Source: Candidatus Adlerbacteria bacterium
Lineage (GTDB): Bacteria > Patescibacteriota > Minisyncoccia > Phycocordibacterales > SBAW01
NCBI GenBank assembly: GCA_029288895.1
Contig: JARIGK010000002.1
Span: forward strand, 29,545 to 93,544
DNA: 64,000 nucleotides
Reading direction: 5' to 3'
Part shown: positions 10,177 to 56,372 of the stretch, piece after piece
Layout of the letters: every line of letters starts with the position of its first letter
Numbering within the stretch: the first letter of the stretch is position 1
The notes under the pieces: model-generated
Seen by the model: only the letters and a program-made list of their open reading frames with translations
Told to the model about the DNA's origin: nothing
The model's database searches: none
Program-made: the position numbers and the translations under genes

Positions 10177-10656
10177 TTAAATAATCACTTGCGCTGGTCT
10201 GATAACTTTGTCTCCTACTTTATATCCGCTGCGTTGCACTTCTACTATTGTGTCTCCATTGCCCTGCTGCGCTATTGCTTCGTGTTTGTAGTGGTCGTAT
10301 GCATCGCCCTTGTCTCCAAATTTTTCTACGCCCATCTTTTTTAAGGAATCCATCAGCTGCTTTTCTACCATCTTGAGCTCGTCTGAGGGGTTATGCTTTT
10401 GCGCCATCTCAAACGAGTCGAGTGCGGGCAGAATATTCTCGACGAATTCGGCTTTGATGCGAGCCTCTTTCTCGCCGAGCATCGCCGCTTCCTCCTTCTT
10501 AAAATTGACGAAATCGGCGCGGGTCCGCTGCCATCCGTCCAAATACTCCTGTTTTTCCTTCACTGCCTGATTTAGCTTTTCGCGGAGCTTTTTGACGGCT
10601 GCGGGACTCTGTTCTTCCTCTTCCTCAATAAATTCTTCATCAGAGTCGTTCAACAT
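10177..10656 (-). CDS. grpE: Nucleotide exchange factor GrpE.
   Basis: 159 aa. Acidic N-terminus, a coiled coil, and a GrpE C-terminal beta domain (VGDKVIRPAQVI). Confidence 0.85.
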   Translation of the reverse strand: MLNDSDEEFIEEEEEQSPAAVKKLREKLNQAVKEKQEYLDGWQRTRADFVNFKKEEAAMLGEKEARIKAEFVENILPALDSFEMAQKHNPSDELKMVEKQLMDSLKKMGVEKFGDKGDAYDHYKHEAIAQQGNGDTIVEVQRSGYKVGDKVIRPAQVII

Positions 10657-10662
10657 TGCACC

Positions 10663-10701
10663 ATTCTACCGAAAAAAAGCTAGCAGTCAAATTCTGCTAG
10701 C
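10663..10701 (-). promoter_or_regulatory. Candidate leaderless grpE promoter (TTGACT-16-TAGAAT, with the -10 6 nt from the ATG). It overlaps an 8-bp inverted repeat GCTAGCAG-N7-CTGCTAGC, which is also the terminator of the upstream DUF1993 gene.
   Basis: Seen on the minus strand. The inverted repeat is followed by T7 (terminator). The -35 lies inside the repeat and TAGAAT is at 10663-10668. The half-sites weakly resemble CIRCE (TTAGCACTC). Confidence 0.4.
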
Positions 10702-10726
10702 CTTTTCCCTCCAACGCTTCCTGCTC

Positions 10727-11230
10727 CTAGAGGTCCTGCAATGGGAGGCCGTTGATGTAGTCGGCTTTGCCGATTTGGACGCCATTTTTGCGGACTATTG
10801 CGTACGCAGTTGCGACATGGAAGAAGAAGTTCGGGATTGCATACTCGCGAGCGTAGTCAAAGCCTGTCATAAACTTGCCTGGGAAGTATTTTATTTCCAC
10901 GCGAGTATCAGCAGCATTTTTGAATGACTCTTTTGAGATTGTTTGCAGATACGCAATTGTTCTATCGATGCGGGCATCGAGCTCTGCAAAGGTAGTCTCG
11001 GTGTCTTCGTAGCTCGGGGTCTCTGTGCCAGAAAGGCGTGAAGCCAAACCTTTGGCATTGTCTGTCGCAACTTGCACCTGCTTTACCAGTGGGAACATGT
11101 CGGGCGCCAAACGGTCGTTTAACAATGTTGTCTCATCTAGCCCGTGCTCTTTGGCCTTCTGTAACACACCCTTCAAACCGCCAAGCATTTTAATAAAAAC
11201 TGGGATCGTAAATTCGTAGATTGATTCCAT
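10727..11230 (-). CDS. DUF1993-family protein (uncharacterised).
   Basis: 167 aa, beginning MESIYEFTIPVFIKMLGGL... with LAPDMFPLVKQVQ. This matches my memory of the DUF1993 consensus. Confidence 0.5.
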   Translation of the reverse strand: MESIYEFTIPVFIKMLGGLKGVLQKAKEHGLDETTLLNDRLAPDMFPLVKQVQVATDNAKGLASRLSGTETPSYEDTETTFAELDARIDRTIAYLQTISKESFKNAADTRVEIKYFPGKFMTGFDYAREYAIPNFFFHVATAYAIVRKNGVQIGKADYINGLPLQDL

Positions 11231-11293
11231 AGGTCGTTCAGTATAGCAGAATTCTTCAGCAAACCTTAAGTTAGAAGAGAGTATGGTCGAGAG

Positions 11294-12451
11294 ATGTGGC
11301 CTGTGGGCATTTTTTTGTTGTGCGCTTCCATTGTGTTGCGGGTCATTTCCTACCCAGTCATTACCTCCGACTACACATACTTCTTAAAGGAATGGTTCAA
11401 CGCCCTTTCCACGCCTGGCCTTTCCGCCTTTACCAGCCCCTTTGCCGACTACGCGCCTCTCTACCTTTACCTAATCAAGTTCTTGACCCTCTTCCCTGTT
11501 TCGAGCCTCTATAGCATCAAGACACTCTCTGTCGTGTTTGATGTTGGTATCACGGCGCTTACATGCCTCATCCTCTATATGCTTGGTATTACAGATAGGG
11601 CGCGGTTGTTCCTTTCATTTGCGATTGTATTCATCACGCCAACCTTCTTGGTGAATAGCGCGCTCTGGGGTCAGTCCGACTCGCCATACGCGTTCTTTGT
11701 ATTACTTTCGTTTTACTTTTTACTGAGAGACAAACCGTCGTTTGCAACGCTCTCGTTTTCCGTGGCTCTGTGTCTCAAGGTACAGGCGATATTCTTCCTG
11801 CCTATTCTTGCAGGCTACCTCTTCCGCCGCAGAGAAGACTTGCCCTACATTGTGCTTGTGCCGATTGTTTTTTTGGCGAGCATCTTGCCTGCGTGGGTTG
11901 CGGGCGGCTCGTTCTCATATTGGTTTATGATCTACGCAAAACAGTCGGGCGAATATACGAGCCTTTCTGTCTCGGCGCAGAGTCTATTGTCGTACGCACA
12001 AGCGCTCTACTTCCCCGGACCTGTACAGAACGCACTTTTTTGGATATCGATCATCGCTTCGCTTTTGGCGGCGCTTTATATATTCGTCCTTGTTGCACGC
12101 GCAGGCCTCTCGGGCCCCGAGCGTATGATGCTGCTCACACTTTTGTGCGTCGCGCTTCTCCCGTACCTCCTTCCGCGCATGCACGAACGGTATTTCTACT
12201 TGGCTGATGTCTTTGCCGTACTCTTCGCACTGTGGCGGCCGCGCGCGTGGTACATTGCGGTGCTTGTGGTGCTCTCGTCGCTTCTTTCGTATCAACCATT
12301 TCTCTCACAACTCTCATTTGTAAAAGCACTTCCCTACGTCGACTTGCGCATGCCTGCGACCATACTTCTCTTTGCAATTATTTTTATCGTGGCCGAAGTT
12401 CGACGCACTCCTGAAATTGAGCATGAAGACGCGCGCTTCAGTCTGCCTTAA
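11294..12451 (+). CDS. GT-C fold integral-membrane glycosyltransferase (DUF2029/GT87-like).
   Basis: 385 aa polytopic membrane protein. It has the HERYFY-type motif typical of DUF2029 mannosyl/glycosyltransferases. It is the first gene of the plus-strand polysaccharide cluster. Confidence 0.55.
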   Translation: MWPVGIFLLCASIVLRVISYPVITSDYTYFLKEWFNALSTPGLSAFTSPFADYAPLYLYLIKFLTLFPVSSLYSIKTLSVVFDVGITALTCLILYMLGITDRARLFLSFAIVFITPTFLVNSALWGQSDSPYAFFVLLSFYFLLRDKPSFATLSFSVALCLKVQAIFFLPILAGYLFRRREDLPYIVLVPIVFLASILPAWVAGGSFSYWFMIYAKQSGEYTSLSVSAQSLLSYAQALYFPGPVQNALFWISIIASLLAALYIFVLVARAGLSGPERMMLLTLLCVALLPYLLPRMHERYFYLADVFAVLFALWRPRAWYIAVLVVLSSLLSYQPFLSQLSFVKALPYVDLRMPATILLFAIIFIVAEVRRTPEIEHEDARFSLP

Positions 12452-12570
12452 TGGTTGCCCGCGTATGGTGGCATTACACGAGGCCCTAAAACAGTTTTTG
12501 GACCCGTTGCAATCTGTAGAACTTATGAGCCCTTTAGTCAGAGCTTCGCTCCAAGCTCGTCCACATACAT

Positions 12571-13698
12571 ATGACCAAACCCATATCGCTGTCGATTTTC
12601 TTCCCCACCTACAATGAGGAAGACAACATTCGCGAAACTGTGCTGCGCACCATTGATGTAGTTGAAGGCTCACCCTACGTTGATGAGTACGAAATTCTCG
12701 TCGTAAACGACGGCAGTAAAGACAAAACTCTCGAGATCGCGCGCGAACTTGAGCGTGACTACCCCGGCGTGCGCGTGGTAAACCACGAACAAAACAAAGG
12801 CTATGGCGCTGCGCTTAAAAGCGGCATGGCTGCAGCAACGAAAGACTACGTCTTTTTTACCGATGCCGACTTACAGTTCGATATTAAAGAATTGCAAAAC
12901 TTGCTGGTGCACTTGGACACGCACCCTGTTGTCATTGGCTATCGCGCGCCCCGCCGCGACAGTGCGATGCGCCTTTTTAATGCGTGGGGGTGGAACAAGC
13001 TCAACCGTTTATTGTTTGGCCTGCGTATCCGCGATATCGACTGCGCATTTAAACTCTTCCGTCGCAGCGAACTGCAGAAAATAAAATTGAAATCAAAAGG
13101 CGCAATGATCAGTGCCGAAACATTGATCCGCCTCACACGCCGCAATGTGGCCGTCAAAGAGGTACCGGTCTCTCACTTGCCGCGTACCGCGGGCTCGCCC
13201 ACGGGCGCCAAGCCGTCGGTTATTTTGCGCGCGTTCCAGGAAATGATTGAACTCTATCGTGGCGAATTAGGTGGTGCAACACAAAAAGAAGCGTTGCGTT
13301 TTATGTCGGTCGGCGTCATCAACACACTGCTTGATGCTGCGATCTACATCATGCTCACGCGTGGTATGGAATTCTTCGCTGTGCACCTGACGGTCGCAAA
13401 GTTTGTCTCATTCTTGGGCGGCACGCTCTCAAGTTTGCTCTTAAACCGCAGTTGGACCTTTGGTATCCGTACGCCTCTTACAACCGGCGAAGTTGTGCGT
13501 TTCTACACGACGACCTCGGCTGCAATTGTCGTCAACGTACTCGTGATGAATGCACTCGTTGGTGCGGGTATGTACGACTTGCTGGCGCTTGCAGTCACTA
13601 CCGTCTTTACTTTCGCGGTTAACTTCACCCTCTCGAAATTCTGGGTCTTCCGCCAAAAGGATGCCCCATCTGCTCAACAAAAAGGCTATGCGATTTAA
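12571..13698 (+). CDS. GT2 glycosyltransferase (polyprenyl-phosphate sugar synthase-like, DPM1/GtrB-type) fused to a C-terminal GtrA-like 4-TM domain.
   Basis: IFFPTYNEEDNI and VVNDGSKDKT GT2-A motifs. The C-terminal 120 aa carry GtrA-like TM helices (MSVGVINTLLDAAIYIML..., KFWVFRQ). Confidence 0.8.
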   Translation: MTKPISLSIFFPTYNEEDNIRETVLRTIDVVEGSPYVDEYEILVVNDGSKDKTLEIARELERDYPGVRVVNHEQNKGYGAALKSGMAAATKDYVFFTDADLQFDIKELQNLLVHLDTHPVVIGYRAPRRDSAMRLFNAWGWNKLNRLLFGLRIRDIDCAFKLFRRSELQKIKLKSKGAMISAETLIRLTRRNVAVKEVPVSHLPRTAGSPTGAKPSVILRAFQEMIELYRGELGGATQKEALRFMSVGVINTLLDAAIYIMLTRGMEFFAVHLTVAKFVSFLGGTLSSLLLNRSWTFGIRTPLTTGEVVRFYTTTSAAIVVNVLVMNALVGAGMYDLLALAVTTVFTFAVNFTLSKFWVFRQKDAPSAQQKGYAI

Positions 13699-14179
13699 CT
13701 CACTTCTTACATCACCCATATTCCACGCCGTAGCGAAAAAGCCCGCTAAGACTGAAAAGCAACACGCTACTTCTACAACTCCAGCGCCTGTACAAGCAAC
13801 GCCTGTGGTTGTAGCGACCAGCACACATCCCGTGCCACCTCCGGCGGCTCATACAGCAACGACGAGTGCGGCGACATCGTCTGCTCCTGTCGCGGCAACA
13901 ACTGTGGGGGGCAAACAATCATCAGCGCAAACACGAACACTCTCTACCAGCGTTGGCGTAGTTTCGGCGCCAGAACATAGCACACTCCTTAACCCCTATG
14001 CGGGCGCAGGCGGCCTTACGCCTGTGGGTACGGCAAGCCTCGTGCTTGGTGCCGCGGTGATGGCAAGCCTCGGCCTCCTCTTTGTGCGCGGAGAAACGCT
14101 CGGAAACTCGTACGAGCGCCTGGTGCGATTTATTGGGGTCAAGGCCCCGCCCCGTGCTGTGCGTTCACGTCACGCATAA
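13688..14179 (+). CDS. Ala/Thr/Pro-rich low-complexity protein with a C-terminal hydrophobic anchor (hypothetical).
   Basis: Same frame as ORF-track 13550..14179, with the probable start at the ATG overlapping the GT2 stop. The sequence reads ATSTTPAPVQATPVVVATSTHPVPPPAAHTATTSAATSSAPVAATT... followed by LVLGAAVMASLGLLFV. Confidence 0.4.
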   Translation: MRFNSLLTSPIFHAVAKKPAKTEKQHATSTTPAPVQATPVVVATSTHPVPPPAAHTATTSAATSSAPVAATTVGGKQSSAQTRTLSTSVGVVSAPEHSTLLNPYAGAGGLTPVGTASLVLGAAVMASLGLLFVRGETLGNSYERLVRFIGVKAPPRAVRSRHA

Positions 14180-14191
14180 ACAAACACATAT

Positions 14192-15409
14192 ATGGTGTCG
14201 CGATTGCTGGGCTACATATTGCTCCTGTGTGCAGCTGTGCTCATAGGCGTGGCAATTTATCGCAACTCGACCAAGAGCGAAGTGCCGCTTACCTTTGCGC
14301 CCAACCAAGTGCTTGACGCAACGTGGGTTGCGTACAAAAAAACTTTCATCGAGGCAGGAACCTTCCGCACCTTAGATAAACAGCGCGGCGACATTACCAC
14401 ATCGGAAGGCCAGAGCTACACGATGCTGCGCGCAGTGTGGATGGGCGATAAAGATACCTTCGATGGTGCATGGAAGTGGACCGGGAGCTATCTCCATCGA
14501 AATGATGATCATTTGTTTTCGTGGCTGTGGGGCCAGCGCCCGGGTGGTGCATACGGCGTGATCACAGAACAGAGCGGTCAAAACACCGCGTCGGATGCCG
14601 ATGAAAATATTGCGCTTGCACTTATCTTCGCCTACGCACGCTGGCAAGACCCCGCATATCTGGCGAGTGCGCGCGACATAGTGGGCGACATCTGGGATAA
14701 GGAGGTGATCGTCATTGGCGGCGTCCCCTACCTCACCGCAGACAACTTAGAAAAAACATCCGCGAGCCAAACTGCAGTGCTCAACCCGTCCTACATGGAG
14801 CCTGCGGCGTACAAAATCTTTGCCGCTATCGACCCGACGCATCCGTGGAACAAACTCGCCGACAGTTCGTACATCGTTCTGCAAAAAAGCATGAACGCAG
14901 AACTGGGGAGCGGTGCATCTGCTGGCCTTCCGCCCAACTGGGTTGGGATCGACAAAACATCAGGGAGCCTTGTGCCGCTGCCTGGCACAAACGACACCAA
15001 CTATAGCTACGACGCGATGCGCGTGCCATGGAATATCGCGCTCGACTGGCAATGGTTTGGCGACAAACGTGCACAGACCCTCCTTTCGAAGATGTCGTTC
15101 TTGGGGGCGCAGTGGGACAAGAACCACGCACTTGCAAGCGTCTACAACCACGCAGGCGGTACGGTCACTCCGGAAGAATCGCCGGCCATCTACGGAGGCG
15201 ACCTCGGCTACTTCCTTGTTGCGCAACCGGTAAAGGCAAAAGACGTGTACGAACAAAAGCTCCTCTTCCTCTACAACCCTGGCCTTAACGACTGGAAGCA
15301 ACAACTTTCCTACTACGACGCAAATTGGGTGTGGTTTGGCATCGGGCTCTACAACAATTTGCTCCCCAACTTAGCAAACGACGTACCAAAGACCGCGATT
15401 ACTCATTAA
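14192..15409 (+). CDS. Glycoside hydrolase family 8 endo-beta-1,4-glucanase (BcsZ/CelA-like) with an N-terminal signal anchor.
   Basis: TTSEGQSYTM (the GH8 catalytic-acid region SEGQ.Y), ASDADENIALALIF and an aromatic-rich C-terminus. The size is 405 aa. Confidence 0.8.
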   Translation: MVSRLLGYILLLCAAVLIGVAIYRNSTKSEVPLTFAPNQVLDATWVAYKKTFIEAGTFRTLDKQRGDITTSEGQSYTMLRAVWMGDKDTFDGAWKWTGSYLHRNDDHLFSWLWGQRPGGAYGVITEQSGQNTASDADENIALALIFAYARWQDPAYLASARDIVGDIWDKEVIVIGGVPYLTADNLEKTSASQTAVLNPSYMEPAAYKIFAAIDPTHPWNKLADSSYIVLQKSMNAELGSGASAGLPPNWVGIDKTSGSLVPLPGTNDTNYSYDAMRVPWNIALDWQWFGDKRAQTLLSKMSFLGAQWDKNHALASVYNHAGGTVTPEESPAIYGGDLGYFLVAQPVKAKDVYEQKLLFLYNPGLNDWKQQLSYYDANWVWFGIGLYNNLLPNLANDVPKTAITH

Positions 15410-15419
15410 CAAAACGCGT

Positions 15420-16979
15420 ATGAACACGAACTACGATCACACACCACACGACCTCCGCACCGACTTTTTGGAAACAAAGACGCCTAAGATGCTGTTTGTC
15501 ATAAACGCAGTGCTTGCGGTGGCATATTTTGCCGTACTCGTGTTCTTCTTCCCTATCGGCAACAAGCTATTGTTTGCGTTGCTTATCGCAGGCGAAATAT
15601 TCCACCTGTGGCAGGTGCTCACCTTCCTCTATACGGTGTGGGATACAGAATATGAGGCACCGCGGAACCCATCATTCCATCCGCCTGTCGATGTGTTTAT
15701 TACCGTGGCAGGCGAACCTGTCGAGCTCGTACAAAAAACAGTGGCCGCTGCGCGCGCAATGAACTACCCGAACTTTGATGTCTATATATTGAATGACGGC
15801 TACGTTGCGGGCAAAGACAACTGGCGCGACATCGAAGCGCTCGCGAGCCGCATGGCGGTCAATTGCATTACACGCACAGTGCCTGGTGGTGCCAAAGCCG
15901 GCAACATTAACAATGCACTCAAATTAACGAAGAGCCCGCTTGTAGCAATATTTGACGCCGACCATGTGCCGCGCGGCGACTTCTTGCGCGCAACGGCTGC
16001 CTACTTTGCCGACCCTACGGTGGCCTTTGTGCAGACGCCGCAGTTCTACAAAAACTATAGCGAAAACTTCATCACCAAAAGCTCGTGGGAACAGCAAGAA
16101 CTTTTCTTCGGGCCCATCTGCAAAGGTAAAAATCGGTTAAACGCAGCGACCATGTGCGGCACCAACATGTTGATTTCGCGCGAGGCACTTGTTGATGTGG
16201 GCGGTATGTGTACCGAGTCGATCGCGGAAGATTTTATCACCGGCCTTATGATCCACGCGCGCGGGTGGCGTTCTGTCTACCATGGAGAAGTGTTGGCCGA
16301 AGGGTTGGCTACAGAAGATCTTCTGTCATATTCAAAGCAACAGTTCCGCTGGGCACGCGGCGCGCTTGATGTTATCTTCCGCTACAACCCGCTTTTTATG
16401 CGTGGGTTGTCATGGGCGCAAAAAATACAGTACTTGGCGTCGGCGAGCTTCTACCTCTCTGGATTGTTCGTGGTGCTTGATGCACTTCTCCCCGTTATTT
16501 ACTTCTACACCGGCACTGTGCCTGTGATCATCTCCGGCATGCTCTTGGCCTCCTTCTTTTTGCCGTACCTCTTCTTTACGTTCTACGTCATTCAACGCAC
16601 CAGTAACTCAACCTTTACCTTCCCGAGCCTTGGCTTCTCGATGGGCAGCTTCAATATCCAATTGCAAGCGCTCTACTCGGCAGCGACATTCCAACGTTCA
16701 GCATTCGGCATCACGCAAAAGAAAAAACTTGAAGGTAATTTCGTTGGGCTGGTCAAATGGCACATTGCTTATGCGGCACTGGTCGTGGGCGGCATCGTTG
16801 TGGCCTTCCTACGCGAAGGGTTCTCGGCGTCGCTCTTCAATAACATTGCGTGGGGCGCATTGAATATCATCATCTTCCTGCCGTTTATCCGTGCCGCATT
16901 CCCTGAACGTACACGCAATCAGTCTGTACCGCTCGGGACACCTGTAGCACAGAGAACATATGCCGTACGAAAACACTAA
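15420..16979 (+). CDS. Processive family-2 beta-glycosyltransferase (cellulose synthase/BcsA-like catalytic core) with no PilZ domain.
   Basis: DAD (IFDADHVP), TED-like (AEDFITG) and QxxRW (QQFRWARG) motifs. It has 2 N-terminal and about 4-5 C-terminal TM helices and is 519 aa. Confidence 0.8.
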   Translation: MNTNYDHTPHDLRTDFLETKTPKMLFVINAVLAVAYFAVLVFFFPIGNKLLFALLIAGEIFHLWQVLTFLYTVWDTEYEAPRNPSFHPPVDVFITVAGEPVELVQKTVAAARAMNYPNFDVYILNDGYVAGKDNWRDIEALASRMAVNCITRTVPGGAKAGNINNALKLTKSPLVAIFDADHVPRGDFLRATAAYFADPTVAFVQTPQFYKNYSENFITKSSWEQQELFFGPICKGKNRLNAATMCGTNMLISREALVDVGGMCTESIAEDFITGLMIHARGWRSVYHGEVLAEGLATEDLLSYSKQQFRWARGALDVIFRYNPLFMRGLSWAQKIQYLASASFYLSGLFVVLDALLPVIYFYTGTVPVIISGMLLASFFLPYLFFTFYVIQRTSNSTFTFPSLGFSMGSFNIQLQALYSAATFQRSAFGITQKKKLEGNFVGLVKWHIAYAALVVGGIVVAFLREGFSASLFNNIAWGALNIIIFLPFIRAAFPERTRNQSVPLGTPVAQRTYAVRKH

Positions 16980-18498
16980 AACACCAACAAGAGATATAGT
17001 GCTGCTCGTATGCATTATGCTCATTCCGCTTGCCTTGTCCGCCTTCTTCTTTATGGGGCAGAGCTTGCGGCTCGACGAAGCACAGAGCCTCTGGCAAACC
17101 AGCCGCAGCGTGTCAGCTATCTTCAAGCAAGTGGGCAGCGATGTGCACGTCCCCTTCTACCACCTATTACTGCACTTCTGGCAGATATATTTTGGCGCGA
17201 CAATTGTCTCGGCGCGCCTGATGTCGCTGCTGTTTTACGAACTCTCGATCCCTGCGCTCTACCTGCTTGGGCGAACAAGCTTTAACCGCCGCATTGGGCT
17301 GTATGCTGCATTTCTCTTTGCACTCTCGCCGTTTATGAATTGGTATGGCAACGAGATACGCATGTACACGCTGTTTACGTTCTTCACTATTTTGAACCAA
17401 TACTTCTTTGTACGTATATGGAAAGCGCGCACGAGCCTTGCGGGCGAAGAGCAGCGGCAGTCGCATATATGGGCTGGATACATTCTCACCGCCGTGTTTG
17501 GCGTCTTCTCGCACTACTTTTTCTTCCTCAACCTGCTTGCACAAGTTGTATTTTATTTTGTGCGATGGAAGACATTCCCCGAGGGATCGTTCCGCCGGTT
17601 TCTCTTTTCTGCGGGGGTTGTCGTCGCGGCATTTGTGCCGTGGGTGCTGTATGTGCTGCGCTTGGGAACCATTGGTTTCCAAGAGCCGCTGCTTACGCCG
17701 CCCACATCAGTGAATCTCTTTAGCACGTTTGCACAATTTCTCTTTGGTTTCCAAAACGACAACATTAACACCTTCTTCTTGGCGCTGTGGCCATTGGTTG
17801 TAGTGTTGGCGCTCTTAGCGCTGCGGCGCAAACGTCGTGCGCTGCCCGAGACAGAATATTTCTTGGCGACCATTATTCTTTCCTTTGCGGTGGCGTTCGT
17901 AGTGAGCTTGGCCATAGCGCCTGTATTCGTAAGCCGCTACCTTATCTTTACGATCCCCTCCTTTTACCTATTGCTCGGCAGTTTGTTTGTCACGTATGAA
18001 GCGCGGTTTGCGGTATTTCTTCAGCGTTCGCTCGCATTGCTCATGGTGGTGATGTTGGCGGTCGAGATTGCGAGCCCAAGTACGCCGGTGAAGGAAAATT
18101 ACGAGCAAGCGACTGCCTACATCAGCGCGCATGCGACACCGCAAGATGTGATTGTGTTGTCGGCGCCGTTTACGCTCTACCCAGTGCAGTACTACTACCG
18201 CGGCGCGTCGCCTATCGAGACTCTGCCGCTGTGGGATAGATACGATTTTGGCCCCATCCCGCCGTTTGTTGCTGCAAACTTAGAGAGTGAGGCCAAAACT
18301 GCCGTAGGAAGCAGCCAGAATGTGTATTTGTTGTTGTCGTACGACCAGGGCTACGAGAAGACAGTGTATGACTACTTCAACTCACACTACCAGATGGTCG
18401 ACAAGGAGCATTTCTCGGATGACCTTAACTTGTACGTGTACAAGTTGCGCTACGACACGGCCAAAACGAGTCAGGCGACAACAACGGCTCTGCGCTAA
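16960..18498 (+). CDS. GT-C fold membrane glycosyltransferase, PMT_2/ArnT-like (GT39/GT83-like).
   Basis: 512 aa with more than 10 TM helices and an ArnT-like N-terminal region (SARLMSLLFYELSIPALYLLGR). It overlaps the upstream gene by 20 nt. Confidence 0.6.
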   Translation: MPYENTKTPTRDIVLLVCIMLIPLALSAFFFMGQSLRLDEAQSLWQTSRSVSAIFKQVGSDVHVPFYHLLLHFWQIYFGATIVSARLMSLLFYELSIPALYLLGRTSFNRRIGLYAAFLFALSPFMNWYGNEIRMYTLFTFFTILNQYFFVRIWKARTSLAGEEQRQSHIWAGYILTAVFGVFSHYFFFLNLLAQVVFYFVRWKTFPEGSFRRFLFSAGVVVAAFVPWVLYVLRLGTIGFQEPLLTPPTSVNLFSTFAQFLFGFQNDNINTFFLALWPLVVVLALLALRRKRRALPETEYFLATIILSFAVAFVVSLAIAPVFVSRYLIFTIPSFYLLLGSLFVTYEARFAVFLQRSLALLMVVMLAVEIASPSTPVKENYEQATAYISAHATPQDVIVLSAPFTLYPVQYYYRGASPIETLPLWDRYDFGPIPPFVAANLESEAKTAVGSSQNVYLLLSYDQGYEKTVYDYFNSHYQMVDKEHFSDDLNLYVYKLRYDTAKTSQATTTALR

Positions 18499-19800
18499 TT
18501 AGTGCGCGTTTTGCGCCAAGCCTTGTGCGTACTGCTGCCACCAGGTACCTGCTGAGGGGCCGCCATTGCAGTAGCCATCGCTTTCTCCTGGGGTTTTGAC
18601 CCACAAGTAGGCGTCAACAAGTGCGTTGCCCGTTGATGTGGTTGGGGCTTGGCCAATTGCGCGGCCAGATGGGTTGCACCAGTCGCCGTTTGAACCATTG
18701 CCGTTGCGGCTTGTGTCGATAATGAAGTGCGATGTTTTACCAATTTTCTGCTGGAGGGCTGCGCTAATCTGCGAGCCGTACGATGCTTCGCTTGCAGTGC
18801 CGTCGAAGTTGGAGACATTCAACGAGAAGCCATCCGCTTGCGCAATATTTGCAGCTGCGAGACGGCCTGCCATAACAGATGGGTCGTTCCATCCAGAGTG
18901 GCCGGCATCAAGGTAGACCTTTGTGTTTCCGTTTTGCTTCAAGATCTGCACCGCTTGGCTCAAAAGCGAGTAGCGCGTGCTTTGGTCGCCTGAGGAGAGG
19001 CACGTGATATTTGCGAGCGCGTCAGGCTCCAAGATAACGGTTGCAGGAGATGAGCCAATGCCTGAAGCAAGAGAGCGGATCCAATTTATATAGTTTGATT
19101 GGCTTGTGCCGCCCGATGAATACCCACCGCAGTCGCGGCCTGGGATGTCGTAGGCAACCATCACGGCATTTTTACCTCCTGCGTTTGCGACAAGCGAGTG
19201 GGCATCGTTTTGGATATTCGAATTCCAATCACCAAACCATGTTGCAACTGGTTGCGATGCCAATGCTTGGATGCCGCTCTTCGCTACGCTTGTATTCGGG
19301 TTTACATAGAAACCGTTTGTAGAGAATTGAACAGGGCTCTGCAGCGTAAAAGTCTGCGTAGGCTGAACAGCAGTTACTGTTGGAAACGATGCTGGCGCCA
19401 CAGTTGCTGGTTGGTCGATGTAGATCTGCTCAGACTGCTGAGCGATAACCGCGCCGTTTTTGCGCTCGATAAAGTTAATAGTATATGGGCCTGAGCCGCG
19501 CCAGTTCCATCCGGAGACATTTACGCTTGCCTCTTTGTGCTGGTAGTCGGTGTAGTTGTTGTCCATGGGGACCCACTGCCCGCCGTCGACTTGCCAAAAC
19601 ATGTCGTACTGGGAGACGTCGGTGCCCGGCACCATTGCCTTAAATGGCTGCGTGCCGGTAACATGGGCGCCATTGGTTGGCCACCAGACGTTAACGTCCG
19701 ACGCAGCAGTCACAAGCGGCAAGCCATAGAGATAGATTGATAACGCTATTGTTAAGAGTGTGAGAACTCGCACCTTCTTCACGTTATGTACAGTTTTCAT
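18499..19800 (-). CDS. Secreted glycoside hydrolase family 6 (cellulase/cellobiohydrolase-like) with a novel ~95-aa N-terminal module.
   Basis: Signal peptide MKTVHNVKKVRVLTLLTIALSIYLYGLPLVTAAS. GH6 motifs ILEPDALANI and DAYLWVKTPGESDG. The ORF track extends to 19905; the internal start at 19800 is preferred because of the signal peptide. Confidence 0.75.
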   Translation of the reverse strand: MKTVHNVKKVRVLTLLTIALSIYLYGLPLVTAASDVNVWWPTNGAHVTGTQPFKAMVPGTDVSQYDMFWQVDGGQWVPMDNNYTDYQHKEASVNVSGWNWRGSGPYTINFIERKNGAVIAQQSEQIYIDQPATVAPASFPTVTAVQPTQTFTLQSPVQFSTNGFYVNPNTSVAKSGIQALASQPVATWFGDWNSNIQNDAHSLVANAGGKNAVMVAYDIPGRDCGGYSSGGTSQSNYINWIRSLASGIGSSPATVILEPDALANITCLSSGDQSTRYSLLSQAVQILKQNGNTKVYLDAGHSGWNDPSVMAGRLAAANIAQADGFSLNVSNFDGTASEASYGSQISAALQQKIGKTSHFIIDTSRNGNGSNGDWCNPSGRAIGQAPTTSTGNALVDAYLWVKTPGESDGYCNGGPSAGTWWQQYAQGLAQNAH

Positions 19801-19977
19801 AACTTCACGAGTATAAAGATCTCGTTCCCTTGACCGCAACGCACTTCCTATCCCACAGTCAAAAATTTTCAAATCGTTGTTCTCTGTAATGCTCAAAAAC
19901 TTCATGAACCAACATGACGTTTTAACAATAGCGCATTAGCAATTCATCATCTGTGGATGAGATTTTCTTGCGTTATA

Positions 19978-20012
19978 AAAAATCCCCTGAGCGGGGATTT
20001 TTCTTGTATGTT
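19978..20012 (-). terminator. Rho-independent terminator (AAAATCCCC-TGAGC-GGGGATTTT) for the minus gene ending at 20021.
   Basis: 9-bp GC-rich stem followed by TTTTTTAT on the minus strand. Confidence 0.55.
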
Positions 20013-20020
20013 CTCTTTTT

Positions 20021-20407
20021 TTACTGCGCGCGCTTCCCTGCTTCCATGATAGGGATGTTCGCTTCTGTGGGCACGTAGATGACAGAGCTTTCTGGGCGCT
20101 CTTCCATCATTTTGATCCACTGCCATTTTAGGTAGAGATCGTGCTGTGTAAGCGTTTTGCCTATTGTTTCTATCTGGGTAGCCACAGCTTCTGCCTCGAT
20201 AATTGCGGCTTGCTTGTTGATGGTTGCAGCGTCCAAACGGCCTTGGGCTTTCGACACCTGAATTTGCTGTTCCTTATGAGCCTGCTGCAAATCAGCCTCG
20301 CCCTGCTTTTGCTGTGCCCATACGCGCCACACCGGTGCGCCAAACAACGCCCACAAAATAAGAACGGCGACTAACACTACCGGCCAAAATACAATTGAAA
20401 TATCCAT
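20021..20407 (-). CDS. Hypothetical membrane-anchored coiled-coil protein (128 aa).
   Basis: N-terminal TM (ISIVFWPVVLVAVLILWALFGA), then a Q/A-rich coiled coil. No family recognised. Confidence 0.45.
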   Translation of the reverse strand: MDISIVFWPVVLVAVLILWALFGAPVWRVWAQQKQGEADLQQAHKEQQIQVSKAQGRLDAATINKQAAIIEAEAVATQIETIGKTLTQHDLYLKWQWIKMMEERPESSVIYVPTEANIPIMEAGKRAQ

Positions 20408-20510
20408 ATAAAGAGTGAGTAATTATTGGTACGGCTCTATTGTACCAAACTGCTAATTTTTAAAACAAAAAACTCCCTGAAGGGAGCCTTTTGAATTGAA
20501 TGTGAGAGAT

Positions 20511-20924
20511 TTAGCGCTTCGACCACTGCTTGCGCTTGCGAGCTTTGACGAGGCCTGGCTTCTTGCGCTCCTTTGCACGTGGGTCGCGCTTGAGGAAGCC
20601 TTCCTTTTTAAGGGTGCCGCGGAGGTTTTTGTCGTAGTCGATGAGTGCGCGCGAGATTGCGTGGCGAACTGCTGTTGCCTGGCCAGCGATACCGCCGCCC
20701 GAAACAACAACTGTTACATCAAACTGCGTGCCCAATGCCACTTTGAGGAATGCCTCAAGTGCCACCGTGCGGAGTGCGTCGGTATCAAAATACTTGTTGA
20801 TGTCCTTGCCGTTGATGACAACAGAAGTCTTTGCCGACGGCGTGATGCGTGCGCGTGCAATAGCTGTCTTGCGGCGGCCGACTGCTTCAATGTATTTTTC
20901 TGCTGTTTTTGTTGCGGTTGCCAT
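20511..20924 (-). CDS. rpsI: 30S ribosomal protein S9.
   Basis: C-terminal GGGIAGQATAVRHAISRAL...KRDPRAKERKKPG..KARKR..SKR is diagnostic. Confidence 0.9.
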   Translation of the reverse strand: MATATKTAEKYIEAVGRRKTAIARARITPSAKTSVVINGKDINKYFDTDALRTVALEAFLKVALGTQFDVTVVVSGGGIAGQATAVRHAISRALIDYDKNLRGTLKKEGFLKRDPRAKERKKPGLVKARKRKQWSKR

Positions 20925-24494: not shown

Positions 24495-25766
24495 CTATTC
24501 TGCGTCAACGGTGACCTGAAGTTTGGAGGAATCAGTTGGGAAGGTTGTCTTCCAGAAGGGGCGGATGCTTGCCTGGGCCTTCTCTATCGCAGGCGAGAAT
24601 TGCTGGACTACAGACTGAAAGGCGCTTTTGTCTTTACCAAGGAGTGCTGTTTTGAGGGCGTCCTGGTCAAATTGCCATACCAAGGTTGGGCTGCCCTGGA
24701 GCAAAAGGGTCAACGGTCCAGTATTTACAGGGGTTTTTGAGGTGCTTGTTGCAAGCTGGAGGATAAGCGGGTTTGGGGTCGCAAAATCGACATTCTCCCC
24801 GGCGTAGCCTTGGACGAGCAGCTTTGCGAGTGCAGATGCCAGGTCGGCGCTTTTTACAATTGCCAAGGTTGCGTTGGCTGTTTGCGTAAGGCTAACTTTT
24901 CCGCCATCAACAGGGCTCTGGGCAATTGCGCTGTAGGTAATCGCAAGCGAGCCTTGGACGGGCAAAAAGTTTTCGGGTACCGAGTTGCCGGACGCAGAGC
25001 TCAATGCTGCATCAAGTTGGCTCTTGAGTGTGTCCTCTGCTTTTTGCATATCAGCATCGGTGATGCCAGCCTGGTCGCCGACAAACCCGCCCGTGATATC
25101 TGCTGTCGACTGAGCTGTAATTTTGGTGTAACGCGCATCGCCCTTAAAACCTGGGATAGTAAACGATGTTGGGCCTGTGCGGTTATAGTCTGCCCCTGGC
25201 GCATCGGCGTAGATAGTTGCGACAACGGTGCCTGCGGTGAAGGTTCCGTCAGCCTTTTTCTTGCCGCCGGGGACAGTTACTGCGCTGTGGATGCGGTAGA
25301 TCTTGCCGTCTGCTGCTGCAAAACGAGTGTTTGCGATAAGTGCCTGCGGCGCTGCGCTAAAGGTATTGGAAATAGTGACGGCGCCGCTCGCCTGTTTCGA
25401 GATATGCTGCGTGCCTGATGCCGAAACGGCCGTCGTTGCCGACTGCGAAAGAGACACTGTTTGGTAGCCAAGGCTGCCGCTTGGCGCATTTGGTGCCGCG
25501 GTGAGATTTGCTGGCGGGTTTACGCTCTGCATCTTAGGCGTAATGGTTACTGTCGCGCCTGCAAAGAGTGTCGAAAGCAAAAGGCCCGCAATAGCGCAAA
25601 CTACAACAACCGCAACTGTTATCCAGAGCCAACGGCGCGAGCGCTTTCTTCGTTTAGGCAAAGGGATGTCGCCTGGGAAGCGTTCTGGGTTGGAACGGCG
25701 GTGGCTGCCGCCCGAAACAGGGATGTTGCGGATCGAGCGTTCGCCCGGTGGAGTCATGTCTTTCAT
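24495..25766 (-). CDS. Hypothetical bitopic membrane protein (423 aa): basic cytoplasmic N-terminus, one TM, large Ala/Thr/Ser-rich extracytoplasmic domain. It may be a PilN/PilO-like partner of the upstream PilM-like gene.
   Basis: N-terminal KRRKRSRRWLWITVAVVVVCAIAGLLL, and no enzymatic motifs. Its position directly downstream of the actin-like ATPase is the only support for the PilN/O idea. Confidence 0.45.
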   Translation of the reverse strand: MKDMTPPGERSIRNIPVSGGSHRRSNPERFPGDIPLPKRRKRSRRWLWITVAVVVVCAIAGLLLSTLFAGATVTITPKMQSVNPPANLTAAPNAPSGSLGYQTVSLSQSATTAVSASGTQHISKQASGAVTISNTFSAAPQALIANTRFAAADGKIYRIHSAVTVPGGKKKADGTFTAGTVVATIYADAPGADYNRTGPTSFTIPGFKGDARYTKITAQSTADITGGFVGDQAGITDADMQKAEDTLKSQLDAALSSASGNSVPENFLPVQGSLAITYSAIAQSPVDGGKVSLTQTANATLAIVKSADLASALAKLLVQGYAGENVDFATPNPLILQLATSTSKTPVNTGPLTLLLQGSPTLVWQFDQDALKTALLGKDKSAFQSVVQQFSPAIEKAQASIRPFWKTTFPTDSSKLQVTVDAE

Positions 25767-27335: not shown

Positions 27336-29202
27336 AGACCGCTTTAATGCGGCGGACGCCTTGCGCGACGGCTTCTTCTTTTTGGATTTTGAAATGTTTG
27401 CCACCAGTTGCCAACTCACCCGTGTGTCCGACGTGCGGGCCGCCGCAGAATTCAATTGAGAATGCGTTGTCGACAGGGCCGACAGAGTAGACAGAGACCA
27501 TATCTGGGTATTTAGCACCAAATTCGTGCTCTGCACCCAAACGCTCTGCCTCGTCTTTGCTCATTTCGGTGCGGACAACCGTAATGTCTTCGTTGATTTT
27601 TTCGTTGACGATGCGCTCAACTTCTTTTTTCTGCTCATCGGTCATCTTCGCACCGTAGTTAAAGTCGATACGCAAACGCTCTTGCGTGATGTTCGAGCCG
27701 CGCTGGTGAACTTCTGGCCCAAGCACGATCTGCAGCGCTTTAAGCAGCAAGTGGTGTGCGGTGTGGAGGCGGACGGTCTTTTCTTCCGTATCTGCCAAAC
27801 CGCCTTTAAATTTCTGCTCGGAACCCGAACGCGAAAGATCCTGATGCTTCTTGAGTAATTCCTTAAAGCCCTCAATATCGATTTGTTTGATGCCACGCTC
27901 CCCTGCCTCTTCGATAATCAATTCGAGCGGGAAACCAAACGTTGTCACAAGCTGGAATGCATCCTGTGCAGACACAGAACCGTTGCCAGTAAACCGCTCA
28001 AGCTCTTTCTTGCCGCGGGCAAGTGTTTTGCGGAACTTCTCTTCTTCACCAGAAATCGAAGCTTCGATCTCTTGGATCTTTTCAACAAGTTCTGGGTACT
28101 GGTCTTTGTACATATCGACAACCGGCTGCACAACCTGTGCAAACCCTGCCTCTGCGATGCCAAGTTTGTCTGCGTAGCGCACAGAGCGGCGGATAAGGCG
28201 GCGCACAAAGTAGCCTTGGTCTGCAGCGCCTGGTTTTACACCGTCGGCAATCAAAAAGACCGCTGCCTTCATGTGGTCGGCAATGATGCGGAAGGAACGT
28301 ACGTCGTCTTTGTATGACTTGCCCGATGCTTTTTCCAAATACTCGATGATAGGAGCATGATTGGATGTGATGATGTCTGGGCTGTTTGTTGCAGCCATAA
28401 CAATGCGCTCCAAACCGCCGCCGAAGTCGACGTTTTGTTTTGGAAGCAATGCAAATGTGCCATCATCTTGCTTGATGTACTGCATAAACACTGAGTTACC
28501 GATTTCGAGGAAGCGGCCGCAATCGCAGTTAGGGTGGCAGTGTTCGCCAAACTTCGTGTCGTGCGGCGTGCCAAAGTCGTAAAAGACTTCAGAGTCTGGG
28601 CCGCCTGGCTCGCCTGCCGGCATTTTGTCGGGCGTACCTGCGCGCGACCACCAGTTTTTCTTTGCGTCGTAGTAGAAGATGCGCTCGCCCTCTTTAATAC
28701 CCTTTATGTACCCATCTTCTTCCGAACCTATTTCTGCAACTTTTGCATCAATGCCTTTTCCTGCAAACAACTTCTGCCAGAGTTCTGCAGATTCTGTGTC
28801 TTTAGGCACGTTGTTTTTCTCATCACCTAAAAAGACAGTAACGTAGAGGTTCTTCGGGTCGAGACCAACCTCATCAACTAAAAACTCAAAAAACCACGGC
28901 AGCTGTTCTTGTTTAAAATAGTCACCAAGCGACCAGTTACCGAGCATCTCAAAGAAAGTCGTGTGGCGATTATCGCCCACTTCTTCAATATCGCCCGAGC
29001 GGAAGCACTTTTGGCTGTCGCAGATTCGAGCGCCCGCAGGGTGATTTTTGCCCAAAAGGTATGGCACCAACGGCTGCATACCTGAGCCGGTAAAGAGCGT
29101 TGTCGGGTCGTTCTGTGGTACGAGCGGCGACGACGGTATAACCGCATGCCCGCGCGCTTCATAGAACTTTAAATACTTTTGTCTAACCTCAGTAGGGGTC
29201 AT
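27328..29202 (-). CDS. alaS: Alanyl-tRNA synthetase, a short form lacking the C-terminal C-Ala domain.
   Basis: Class II AlaRS catalytic core (FTGSGMQP..., GNWSLGDYFK), editing-domain HxxxH (HTAHHLL) and CGGPHVGHTGE. It is 624 aa, versus about 870 in typical bacteria. Confidence 0.9.
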   Translation of the reverse strand: MTPTEVRQKYLKFYEARGHAVIPSSPLVPQNDPTTLFTGSGMQPLVPYLLGKNHPAGARICDSQKCFRSGDIEEVGDNRHTTFFEMLGNWSLGDYFKQEQLPWFFEFLVDEVGLDPKNLYVTVFLGDEKNNVPKDTESAELWQKLFAGKGIDAKVAEIGSEEDGYIKGIKEGERIFYYDAKKNWWSRAGTPDKMPAGEPGGPDSEVFYDFGTPHDTKFGEHCHPNCDCGRFLEIGNSVFMQYIKQDDGTFALLPKQNVDFGGGLERIVMAATNSPDIITSNHAPIIEYLEKASGKSYKDDVRSFRIIADHMKAAVFLIADGVKPGAADQGYFVRRLIRRSVRYADKLGIAEAGFAQVVQPVVDMYKDQYPELVEKIQEIEASISGEEEKFRKTLARGKKELERFTGNGSVSAQDAFQLVTTFGFPLELIIEEAGERGIKQIDIEGFKELLKKHQDLSRSGSEQKFKGGLADTEEKTVRLHTAHHLLLKALQIVLGPEVHQRGSNITQERLRIDFNYGAKMTDEQKKEVERIVNEKINEDITVVRTEMSKDEAERLGAEHEFGAKYPDMVSVYSVGPVDNAFSIEFCGGPHVGHTGELATGGKHFKIQKEEAVAQGVRRIKAVLE

Positions 29203-29250
29203 GCTGGGTATCGTACCAATTTTTTTGGCATTAGGGTATCATCAACATCT

Positions 29251-38180: not shown

Positions 38181-39065
38181 TTAGTGCAAATACTTCTTTT
38201 CGTTTGCGAGCTGTTGCGCGTACGTTTGGCTATAGTGGAAATTCCCTTGTTTGTCAGATATGTAGTAGAGGTACGGCGTTGAGGTCGGGGTTGCGGCGGC
38301 AATGATGGCGTCGAGGCCTGGGTTTGCAATTGGCACTGCTGGGAGGCCAACTGTGGCGTACGTTGCGCGGTCGACATCAACTTGCAGAGGCATGCCCATC
38401 GACAAGCGTTTCCACAAAATGCCAGAAATGATGAGGCGGTTTTGCGTATCAGGTGCTTCTTTTTCTATAAGCGACGCCATCGTGATGATGTTCGCAAACG
38501 ATTGGTTTGATGATGTAATCGCCTGCTGCACTCGGGGCGCTGCAACCTGCGAATTAAAATTGTCGCGCATCGTTTTGACGATGTCGGTCATACTCTCGCC
38601 CGGGTAGAAGAAGTACGTATCCGGAAAGAGATACCCTTCTTGTGGTTTTGCCACATACAAAAATGTTTGCTTGTCGAAGGTTGGAAGCGATTGCGCAAGT
38701 ATGGCTGCTATCTCTTCAGAATCGAGCCCTTCCGGCACTGTAACTTTGACAGGCTCAATATTGAAATTACCTATGCGTAGGCGCCACGCGATAGCAAAGG
38801 CATTGGTTGGCTCGGCAAAATAATATGTGCCTGTCTTTATATGTGTTTGGCCGCCATAGAGGCGCAGCAATACGCGGAACAAAAATTGCGAACGGACGGC
38901 GTGGTCGATGGTAAGTGCCTCTGCAATATCTTGCCCTGTTTCGCCGCTATGCACGGGCAAGAGAAGTTGTTTTGGAAAGTCGCGCGGTGCCGAAAACAGA
39001 ACGACATAGAGCACAAAGCCCAGCACAAGCCCTGCTATGATGCTGGCGCGGATATAAAGACCCAT
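38181..39065 (-). CDS. mltG: Endolytic murein transglycosylase MltG (YceG-like).
   Basis: N-terminal TM, a YceG domain and the C-terminal YYISDKQGNFHYSQTYAQQ. Confidence 0.8.
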   Translation of the reverse strand: MGLYIRASIIAGLVLGFVLYVVLFSAPRDFPKQLLLPVHSGETGQDIAEALTIDHAVRSQFLFRVLLRLYGGQTHIKTGTYYFAEPTNAFAIAWRLRIGNFNIEPVKVTVPEGLDSEEIAAILAQSLPTFDKQTFLYVAKPQEGYLFPDTYFFYPGESMTDIVKTMRDNFNSQVAAPRVQQAITSSNQSFANIITMASLIEKEAPDTQNRLIISGILWKRLSMGMPLQVDVDRATYATVGLPAVPIANPGLDAIIAAATPTSTPYLYYISDKQGNFHYSQTYAQQLANEKKYLH

Positions 39066-56335: not shown

Positions 56336-56372
56336 CACCTCCGCCACCTCGGCGGAGTTTTCTTTTACTGCG
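56336..56372 (+). terminator. Rho-independent terminator CTCCGCC-ACCTC-GGCGGAG plus TTTTCTTTT.
   Basis: 7-bp GC stem and a U-tract immediately after the third tiny ORF. Confidence 0.55.

Follow-up and report, generated by a model that had tools for sequence, protein, structure and literature searches.

What does a BcsA-like, cellulose-type synthase work with when neither BcsB nor a PilZ switch is at hand? This question is raised by a gene cluster at positions 11294-19905 of the DNA analyzed here, a 64,000-nucleotide stretch of contig JARIGK010000002.1 from Candidatus Adlerbacteria bacterium, which is referred to as the window. The first-pass annotation of this stretch had described six plus-strand genes with short or overlapping junctions and a convergent GH6 gene, and the coordinates of the open reading frames (ORFs) agreed with that layout, as did Pfam and NCBIfam with the domains it had named (GT87, GT2-GtrA, GH8, BcsA-like GT2, PMT_2, and GH6). 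Comparison across genomes revealed that the core of the cluster consists of a GH8 endoglucanase, the BcsA-like GT2 synthase, and a PMT_2 GT-C glycosyltransferase with an ArnT-like fold, the rest being accessory. We give somewhat better than even odds (a probability of roughly 0.55) that the cluster is an operon for a synthase-dependent, cellulose-like surface polymer, made without BcsB or a PilZ switch and modified by the GT-C enzyme.

A GH8/GT2/GT-C core recurs across genomes

The window proteins were mapped onto 80 loci from species-representative genomes of Parcubacteria, Microgenomates, WWE3, Doudnabacteria, and Gracilibacteria. A PMT_2 GT-C gene was adjacent to the synthase gene in 77/80 loci and a GH8 gene lay directly upstream of it in 76/80, the three genes being co-directional throughout; in several of the loci without GH8 or GT-C, the synthase sat at a contig end. 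A GT2-GtrA match of any kind (26-72% identity) and a GH6 gene were found near this triad in 41 and 40 of the 80 loci, respectively, and GT87 was near the synthase in 9, with varying position and strand. These counts indicated that the conserved core is the trio GH8/GT2/GT-C, not the six-gene locus described earlier, although all six genes are present in the window. Likewise, the two GT-C enzymes noted before both exist but are not equivalent, since the PMT_2 protein is the obligate partner of the synthase and the GT87 protein is peripheral. The order GH8/GT-C/GT2 occurred in some Paceibacteria, and the flanks of the cluster varied between genomes, as seen with a synthase homologue of 74% identity that provided genomic context. 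With recurrence in 80 independent genomes, far more than expected by chance, the gene order is not a chance feature. The genes concerned are as follows.

11294-12451, plus strand: GT87/DUF2029 GT-C glycosyltransferase, 385 aa (PF09594, E = 1.4e-8); peripheral
12571-13698, plus strand: GT2-GtrA protein, predicted polyprenyl-phosphate-hexose synthase, 375 aa (PF00535, 5e-34, and PF04138, GtrA_DPMS_TM, 1.5e-18); accessory
13550-14179 as listed, likely start 13688, plus strand: small Ala/Thr/Ser/Pro-rich anchored protein (no Pfam family); accessory
14192-15409, plus strand: membrane-anchored GH8 endoglucanase, BcsZ-like, 405 aa (GH8, 7e-40); core
15420-16979, plus strand: BcsA-like processive GT2 synthase-translocase, 519 aa (Pfam GT2 families and Cellulose_synt); core
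16960-18498, plus strand: GT-C glycosyltransferase of ArnT-like fold, 512 aa (PMT_2, 2e-8); core
18499-19905, probable start ~19800, minus strand: secreted GH6 glucanase (GH6, 4.5e-65); accessory
56365-58101, minus strand: GH113-family hydrolase, 578 aa (GH113, 6.9e-47); possible distant accessory

The GT87 and GT2-GtrA genes are separated by a 119-bp gap, and the small ORF, when read from its likely ATG at 13688 (MRFNSLL...), overlaps the GT2-GtrA gene by 11 nt. Gaps of 12 bp (small ORF to GH8) and 10 bp (GH8 to synthase) follow, the synthase and PMT_2 GT-C genes overlap by 20 nt, and the stop codon of the convergent GH6 gene abuts that of the GT-C gene.

The first-pass annotation had noted that such a system is not well characterized in reduced-genome bacteria. 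It is not confined to reduced genomes, as the same cassette was found in cultured Actinobacteria: Geodermatophilus sp. DSM 44513 (CP135963.1, ~219-226 kb) carries GtrA, GT2, GT4, GH8, BcsA-like GT2, and PMT_2 genes plus a convergent GH6, and Quadrisphaera oryzae (JACNME010000006.1) has the same set without GH6, with GtrA and GT2 as separate genes in both. Homologues bore the names Adlerbacteria, Kaiserbacteria, Paceibacterota, or Parcubacteria, which places the window in a Patescibacteria genome. In a neighbor-joining (NJ) tree, the Geodermatophilus (L083) and Quadrisphaera (L090) synthases nested within a clade containing members of the candidate phyla radiation (CPR), beside a Saccharimonadales-labelled protein, with a bootstrap value of 100; internal support inside the CPR clade was 10-50%, and only well-supported splits were used. 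This nesting suggested that the cassette moved horizontally between Actinomycetota and Patescibacteria.

The synthase is nearest to BcsA and has no PilZ domain

Among sequences of known structure, the best match of the synthase was BcsA (4hg6/5ej1; 8e-53 for Rhodobacter and 2e-49 for E. coli), followed by plant CesA at ~1e-11. The protein, which has 2+4 transmembrane (TM) helices, aligned to residues 94-583 of Rhodobacter BcsA; it is without the first two TM helices of BcsA and ends where PilZ begins. Consistent with the previous description, no PilZ Pfam match was detected in the synthase at E<0.01, PF07238 was in none of the listed homologues, and the ORFs scanned across the 64-kb window included no BcsB, PilZ, or GGDEF. 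BcsB was not found in the Pfam-annotated related loci either, and as a control, bcsA on an E. coli plasmid adjoined bcsB.

The window synthase contains the motifs LNDG, FDADH, AED, and QQFRWARG, as well as FGITQK in the gating loop. Thus, the DAD and QxxRW motifs noted earlier were borne out, and the TED-like motif is actually AED. In 79 orthologs, LNDG, GAKAGNIN, FDADH, VQTPQ, CGTN, AED, QQxRWARG, and the gating-loop FxxTxK were conserved at the 80-95% level or above, and WEQQELFFGPI was another conserved motif. An AlphaFold2 (AF2) model was obtained for a natural homologue of 59% identity, the synthase (N-terminal) half of which superposed on BcsA with a root mean square deviation of 3.2-4.5 Å; the fold ranking for this half was BcsA, CesA, CslF6, and then hyaluronan synthase, the last far below BcsA and CesA.

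NCBIfam scores were 266.6 bits for CelA (TIGR03030), 61.6 for PgaC, and 32.4 for NodC, so that the protein was rejected as a NodC or poly-N-acetylglucosamine synthase; the CelA score is itself below the equivalog cutoff of 699.1. The PDB sequence search returned only BcsA/CesA/CslF6-type chains and an archaeal mannosyltransferase, and a chitin or hyaluronan synthase identity was discarded, no such chain being found at E=1e-3. Hence the hidden Markov model scores, the PDB search, and the fold ranking all placed the synthase nearest to BcsA and not within the NodC or hyaluronan synthases, the other placement raised in the first-pass annotation. In the NJ tree, E. coli BcsA, a BgsA-type rhizobial glycosyltransferase, and a CrdS-like Agrobacterium glycosyltransferase formed one clade with 100% support outside the family of the window protein, the reference labels BgsA and CrdS-like having been inferred from gene neighborhoods.

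The GT-C partner retains the features of an active enzyme

The AF2 model of the GT-C protein (pLDDT 87.4, pTM 0.88) includes a small alpha/beta C-terminal extracytoplasmic domain. A Foldseek search with this model gave ArnT (5ezm; E 3e-8, TM-score 0.61) as the top match, then AglB/STT3/PglB, ALG9/12, and Pmt4, with Pmt4 and Pmt1/2 ranking below ArnT and the oligosaccharyltransferase (OST) subunits. At the sequence level, the broad PMT_2 model was the only PMT model to match, the family-specific PF02366 giving no match, and with the mannosyltransferase model of NCBIfam the score was 51 bits, where the cutoff is 900; homologues carry the source names "mannosyltransferase" or "GT39".

In an alignment of 56 close homologues, R37-L38-D39-E40 just past TM1, D61/H63/H68, and E132/R134 were invariant, and the C-terminal domain showed an aromatic cluster formed by Y407, Y411-413, and W425. 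Over 76 unfused orthologs (to ~30% identity), RLDE, VHxP, SPFxxWYxxExRMY, YPxxYYY, and PxW were conserved at the 80-95% level, with D39 and E40 of the DE motif kept at the 95% level. This pattern of residue conservation argues for a predicted active enzyme with a sugar-binding outer domain rather than a mere scaffold.

Synthase and GT-C are fused in nature

In two loci (L030 and L045), the synthase and GT-C are encoded by one ORF, of 995 and 997 aa, respectively. A database search with the synthase::GT-C fusion yielded 12 CPR-like GT2::GT-C clusters of 988-1009 aa and further GT2::PMT_2 fusions of 875-1232 aa, whose source names, where given, were Actinomycetota, Gaiellaceae, and Actinobacteria; in all, GT2::GT-C fusions comprised at least 23 protein clusters. 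One protein (P0329) had the reverse order, PMT_2::GT2. The same GT2 was also found fused to GtrA (L027/P0253), to GH8 (P0341-P0358), to GH26, and to a protein kinase. In all 23 GT2::GT-C fusions examined, the GT-C half retained R-x-D-E, and the GT2 half retained both [AV]ED and QQ[FY]RW.

AF2 modeled the natural fusion P0241 with a pLDDT of 93.7 and a pTM of 0.90, the sole dip being at a linker of ~20 aa. Since a pTM of 0.90 for two domains of ~500 residues means one confidently predicted mutual arrangement, the model indicates that the halves form a single rigid arrangement. The C-terminus of the synthase and the N-terminus of the GT-C are both predicted, by analogy with BcsA and ArnT, to be cytoplasmic, a topology consistent with fusion.

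In distant fusion clades, other hydrolases accompany the fused genes. GH26 lies beside a GT2::PMT_2 fusion in L084 (8813-11896), a methyltransferase and GH10 follow the PMT_2::GT2 fusion in L086 (8001-11258), and a GT2::GH8 fusion is preceded by PMT_2 in L085 (8001-10043). As GH26 or GH10 here replaces GH8/GH6, the backbone may differ between clades; these pairings suggest that synthase/GT-C machines form a family whose members make different backbones.

Donor synthase, hydrolases, and small proteins

The best PDB match of the GT2-GtrA protein was the dolichyl-phosphate mannose synthase (DPMS) of P. furiosus (5mlz), over the full length and at 1.2e-19, followed by ArnC and GtrB. The protein shares the architecture of this archaeal enzyme, with a GtrA-type domain of four TM helices, and every NCBIfam equivalog score was below its cutoff. 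On the strength of the full-length DPMS alignment and the ArnC and GtrB matches, we assign it as a polyprenyl-phosphate-hexose synthase that carries its own GtrA-type domain, in line with the earlier designation of a polyprenyl-phosphate-sugar synthase. GT-C enzymes use polyprenyl-phosphate-sugar donors in three-component glycosylation systems of the GtrA/GtrB/GtrC type. The co-encoded DPMS/ArnC/GtrB-like synthase and GtrA domain would therefore supply the type of donor that the GT-C uses, and the cluster, judged by these predicted functions, holds a complete GtrA/GtrB/GT-C-type glycosylation set.

BcsZ (NF008305) was the best curated NCBIfam match of the GH8 protein, with a score of 136.1 bits against a cutoff of 299. 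In 74 GH8 orthologs, TTSEGQSY (with the catalytic Glu), the PROSITE-type signature ASDADxxIA, and DAxR (Asp) were conserved, as were PxRDCG, LEPD, DAGH, NVSNF, WCNP, and PGESDG in 32 GH6 orthologs. The GH6 protein probably starts at M36 (~19800), a start that gives it a signal peptide. Characterized GH6 enzymes are active on beta-1,4 glycans (PMC9040799). In 11 loci, a full-length GH113 gene lay no more than 8 kb from the triad, and in L091 the fusion gene is immediately followed by GH113.

The N-terminal module of GH6, ~100 aa long (residues 63-162), is 56% identical over 101 aa to the C-terminus of GH113. This common module is rich in aromatic residues (WWPxxG...GTQPFKA...W.VDGG...HKEA...GW.W.G), its GH6 copy lying at 19414-19719 on the minus strand, and 63 copies were counted across 42 related loci. 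Possibly, the module is a novel one for carbohydrate binding or for the cell surface. Neither the module nor the small Ser/Thr-rich ORF had a Pfam match even at E=10.

At least 12 close loci (L001, L003, L005, L006, L008, L009, L014, L015, L016, L037, L041, and L080) have, between the GT2-GtrA and GH8 genes, a small ORF that is 60-222 aa long and shares its C-terminal architecture with the window copy. The Ser/Thr/Pro/Ala-rich part varies, and all the proteins end with N-[IPV]-Y, ~10 residues, a TM helix, and a basic tail, which resembles a sorting/anchoring signal or, alternatively, a TM component of the synthase complex. The small ORF was absent from the close loci L004, L007, L010, and L020, and the window copy was unmatched in the more distant loci.

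A model for polymer synthesis and its alternatives

We propose that the BcsA-like GT2 would polymerize sugar units from a nucleotide-sugar and thread the chain through its own channel of six TM helices. It would do so while stably complexed with the ArnT-fold GT-C, whose gene lies downstream and overlaps that of the synthase. On the outside of the membrane, a catalytically active GT-C would transfer a sugar from polyprenyl phosphate onto the emerging glucan, giving co-synthetic decoration or branching. Its donor would be made and flipped by the DPMS-like GT2-GtrA protein, and the membrane-anchored GH8 and secreted GH6, with GH113 where present, would trim, release, or remodel the polymer. Gene content, motif conservation, synteny, fusions, and fold assignments were observed directly in these genomes, whereas UDP-glucose as the substrate, the linkage, the kind of sugar carried by the lipid, glucan as the acceptor, and constitutive activity independent of cyclic di-GMP (c-di-GMP) are inferred; a beta-1,4-glucan made from UDP-glucose is the presumed product because of the GH8/GH6 partners and the similarity to BcsA. 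The first-pass annotation had suggested that either the product or a surface protein is glycosylated through lipid-linked sugars. The enzyme set for this is present, and the glucan appears to be the more likely target, since the GT-C is linked to the synthase by synteny and fusion.

As a wider and more tentative proposal, with odds short of even, these proteins could represent a new class of machines for synthase-dependent glycan secretion, in which a processive BcsA-type enzyme is hard-wired, by complex formation or fusion, to a GT-C that glycosylates or covalently transfers the nascent beta-glycan via lipid-linked sugars at its exit from the channel. If so, the product would be a branched polymer of a "glycosylated cellulose" type or an anchored surface polymer, many Patescibacteria (CPR) and some Actinomycetota could possess an outer envelope layer of it, and the cognate hydrolase (GH8/GH6, GH113, GH26, or GH10) may track the backbone of each clade.

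Several points weigh against an operon for a modified cellulose-like polymer. The single-operon structure is drawn from spacing and synteny only, because promoter and terminator consensus scans over positions 10600-20600 gave counts no higher than shuffles. BcsA (beta-1,4), BgsA-type, and CrdS-like enzymes fall into a single outside clade, so the phylogeny does not fix the linkage of the product. The hydrolases vary, with GH113 in 11 loci and GH26 or GH10 in distant fusion clades, and the polymer may therefore be other than a pure glucan. Finally, no more than roughly one-half of the loci (41/80) have a GT2-GtrA match in the neighborhood of the triad.

The varying hydrolases lead to the question of whether a different polymer is made, such as a glucan with beta-1,3 or mixed linkages, a (gluco)mannan, or a polymer resembling chitosan. 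GH113, a beta-mannanase family, is linked to the triad by synteny and the common module, GH26 or GH10 stands in place of GH8/GH6 in distant fusion clades, and GH8 itself also includes chitosanases, lichenases, and xylanases in CAZy. Moreover, the synthase scored below the curated CelA cutoff, and its family is separate from the BcsA/BgsA-type/CrdS-like clade, whose members differ in linkage. Nevertheless, the window clade pairs a GH8 whose best curated match is BcsZ with GH6, the catalytic motifs of both being intact, and the closest solved sequence and fold are those of BcsA, with NodC, PgaC, and hyaluronan synthase far lower; we consider another backbone possible but on the unlikely side. 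A further explanation retains the glucan and changes the role of the GT-C: the synthase would extend a glycan bound to polyprenyl phosphate from the start or at a later stage, and the GT-C would move the complete chain in one piece onto an acceptor, for instance a lipid, a protein, or the cell wall, leaving a covalently anchored surface glucan as with an oligosaccharyltransferase or O-antigen ligase. The OST catalytic subunits (AglB, STT3, and PglB) came right behind ArnT in the fold search, tight physical coupling of synthase and GT-C would suit chain hand-over, and in Salmonella O:54 a synthase-dependent O-antigen is built on a lipid primer and then ligated. To our knowledge, however, BcsA-type synthases are not known to require a lipid primer, the GtrA-type flippase and DPMS-like monosaccharide-phosphate-lipid synthase fit single-sugar transfer better, and ArnT, the best fold match, is a monosaccharide transferase. 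Such a ligase function is thus given a low probability, below that of a different backbone.

Less probable again is protein O-glycosylation, in which a PMT-like GT-C acts on Ser/Thr-rich surface proteins such as that encoded at 13688-14179 and is only loosely tied to glucan synthesis. The PMT_2 match, the PMT-like DE motif, and the names of the homologues are in accord with it, as is the Ser/Thr/Pro-rich anchored ORF that recurs in the closest clade, placed after GT2-GtrA and before GH8; yet several close loci do without that ORF, the window copy had no detected match in the more distant loci, PF02366 was unmatched, the NCBIfam mannosyltransferase score was far below its cutoff, and the GT-C gene neighbors the synthase gene in 77/80 loci, with fusions of the two in either order. 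A purely structural role is rated slightly lower still: the GT-C would be a non-catalytic subunit like BcsB or GlxA, steadying the channel and guiding the chain out. BcsA requires BcsB and Streptomyces CslA requires GlxA for activity (PMC11022532). Here, a GT-C is present with neither BcsB nor GlxA, and the fusion was modeled as one rigid body, but the retention of R-x-D-E, VHxP, and ExRMY at the 95% level to ~30% identity, the occurrence of R-x-D-E in all the fusions examined, and the co-encoded donor-supplying GT2-GtrA speak for catalysis; the structural and catalytic roles are in any case mutually compatible. The least probable explanation, to which we give hardly any weight, is a catabolic locus in which GH6, GH8, and GH113, classical biomass-degrading families, digest environmental or host cellulose beside unrelated glycosyltransferases. 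In its favor, GH6 is a secreted enzyme with an additional module of binding type. Against it, many proteins are fusions of GH8 with the synthase, and in 76/80 loci the GH8 gene sits just upstream of the synthase gene; the cluster showed neither a sugar transporter nor downstream genes of catabolism, and its layout mirrors the placement of bcsZ and cslZ in operons for biosynthesis (PMC8892547, PMC9040799). If the GH6, GH8, and GH113 genes do belong to a biosynthetic module, reading them as a sign of cellulose degradation would mislead.

Comparison with known systems

In the canonical Bcs system (BcsA-BcsB(-BcsZ-BcsC), activated by c-di-GMP through PilZ; Rhodobacter 4hg6/4p00 and E. coli), BcsA is the best sequence and fold match of the window synthase and has the same D, DxD, xED, and QxxRW core, FxxTxK gating loop, and TM channel, with a BcsZ-type GH8 glucanase in the operon. 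The window synthase differs in having no PilZ domain and no counterpart of BcsA TM1-2, at ~33% identity and with [AV]ED in place of TED, and the cluster is without BcsB and BcsC; both the CelA and BcsZ scores are below the NCBIfam cutoffs, and the obligate partner is a GT-C glycosyltransferase. The CslA-GlxA-CslZ (+LpmP) system for apical glucan in Streptomyces is similar in that it too belongs to monoderm bacteria, that the synthase depends on a different, translationally coupled membrane partner and that a GH6 gene (CslZ) lies beside the operon on the opposite strand (PMC11022532, PMC9040799). As described, CslA too is a GT2 of BcsA type whose PilZ is at most partial and which has no BcsB. 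Its partner, however, is the radical copper oxidase GlxA, whereas that in the window is the PMT_2 GT-C, and GH8, GtrA, and a polyprenyl-phosphate-sugar synthase are not reported for the CslA cluster.

A GlxA-type partner was sought and dismissed. The sole signal came from a 423-aa single-pass membrane protein (24495-25766, minus strand) that matched the "GlxA beta barrel domain" below threshold (E 2e-5, 25.6 bits versus a cutoff of 27). This ORF had no oxidase domain and no PDB sequence match, and the signal probably reflects merely a shared beta-barrel fold.

Three-component extracytoplasmic glycosylation systems include GtrA/GtrB/GtrC, ArnC/ArnT, CsbB/GtcA/YfhO, and PpgS/Rv3632/Rv3779 of Mycobacterium tuberculosis, and their acceptors are O-antigen, lipid A, teichoic acid, or arabinogalactan, each from a separate pathway. 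The window cluster resembles them in combining a GT2 polyprenyl-phosphate-sugar synthase and a GtrA-family membrane domain with a GT-C acting outside the membrane on a pre-formed glycan, here a putative glucan acceptor. It differs in that the GT-C is tied, and sometimes fused, to a processive synthase-translocase. A docked enzyme that decorates nascent cellulose outside the membrane is known from E. coli BcsA-BcsG, which makes phosphoethanolamine cellulose, and from the acetylated cellulose of Wss/Ccs (PMC8892547). The BcsA-BcsG phosphoethanolamine-transferase complexes (9fmz and 9b8v) were among our fold-search matches and provide a precedent for a modifying enzyme docked on BcsA, but in these systems the chemistry is phosphoethanolamine or acetyl transfer by alkaline-phosphatase-type or MBOAT folds, as opposed to a lipid-linked sugar and a GT-C fold here.

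Full-text literature searches turned up neither a cellulose-type synthase coupled to a GT-C nor any account of cellulose synthases in CPR/Patescibacteria. The GT-C would be a third answer, after BcsB and GlxA, to what BcsA-type synthases need, and two major membrane glycosyltransferase folds, the GT2 synthase and GT-C, would be joined in a single machine. The cluster also points to a conserved surface polysaccharide in CPR/Patescibacteria, whose envelopes and host attachment are poorly understood. These bacteria cannot be grown alone; the presence of the cassette in cultured Geodermatophilus and Quadrisphaera makes the hypothesis testable by genetics and carbohydrate chemistry, and the natural single-chain fusions are ready targets for cryo-electron microscopy.

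Genomic surroundings and other observations

The cluster is flanked upstream by the housekeeping genes for DnaK and GrpE and by DUF1993, and downstream by rpsI, rplM, rplQ, rpoA, and others; elsewhere the window encodes aminoacyl-tRNA synthetases, an ATP synthase operon, Ddl, and UvrC. A foreign origin of the cluster was not indicated, as its GC content of 0.48-0.55 matches that of the rest of the uniform window. At 19978-20002, between a 128-aa ORF (20021-20407, minus strand) and the GH6 start, lies a palindromic hairpin with a perfect 10-bp stem, AAAAATCCCC-TGAGC-GGGGATTTTT, which may be a bidirectional terminator parting the ribosomal-protein transcript from GH6.

The window also codes for an M13-family metallopeptidase (29179-31197, plus strand, 672 aa) and a YceG/MltG-like protein (38181-39065, minus strand), neither of which co-localized with the cluster in other genomes. 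The leucyl-tRNA synthetase gene at 41998-44823 (minus strand) encodes a protein of 941 aa with an apparent NUDIX insertion (Pfam 5e-11) at residues 385-514, just past the editing domain.

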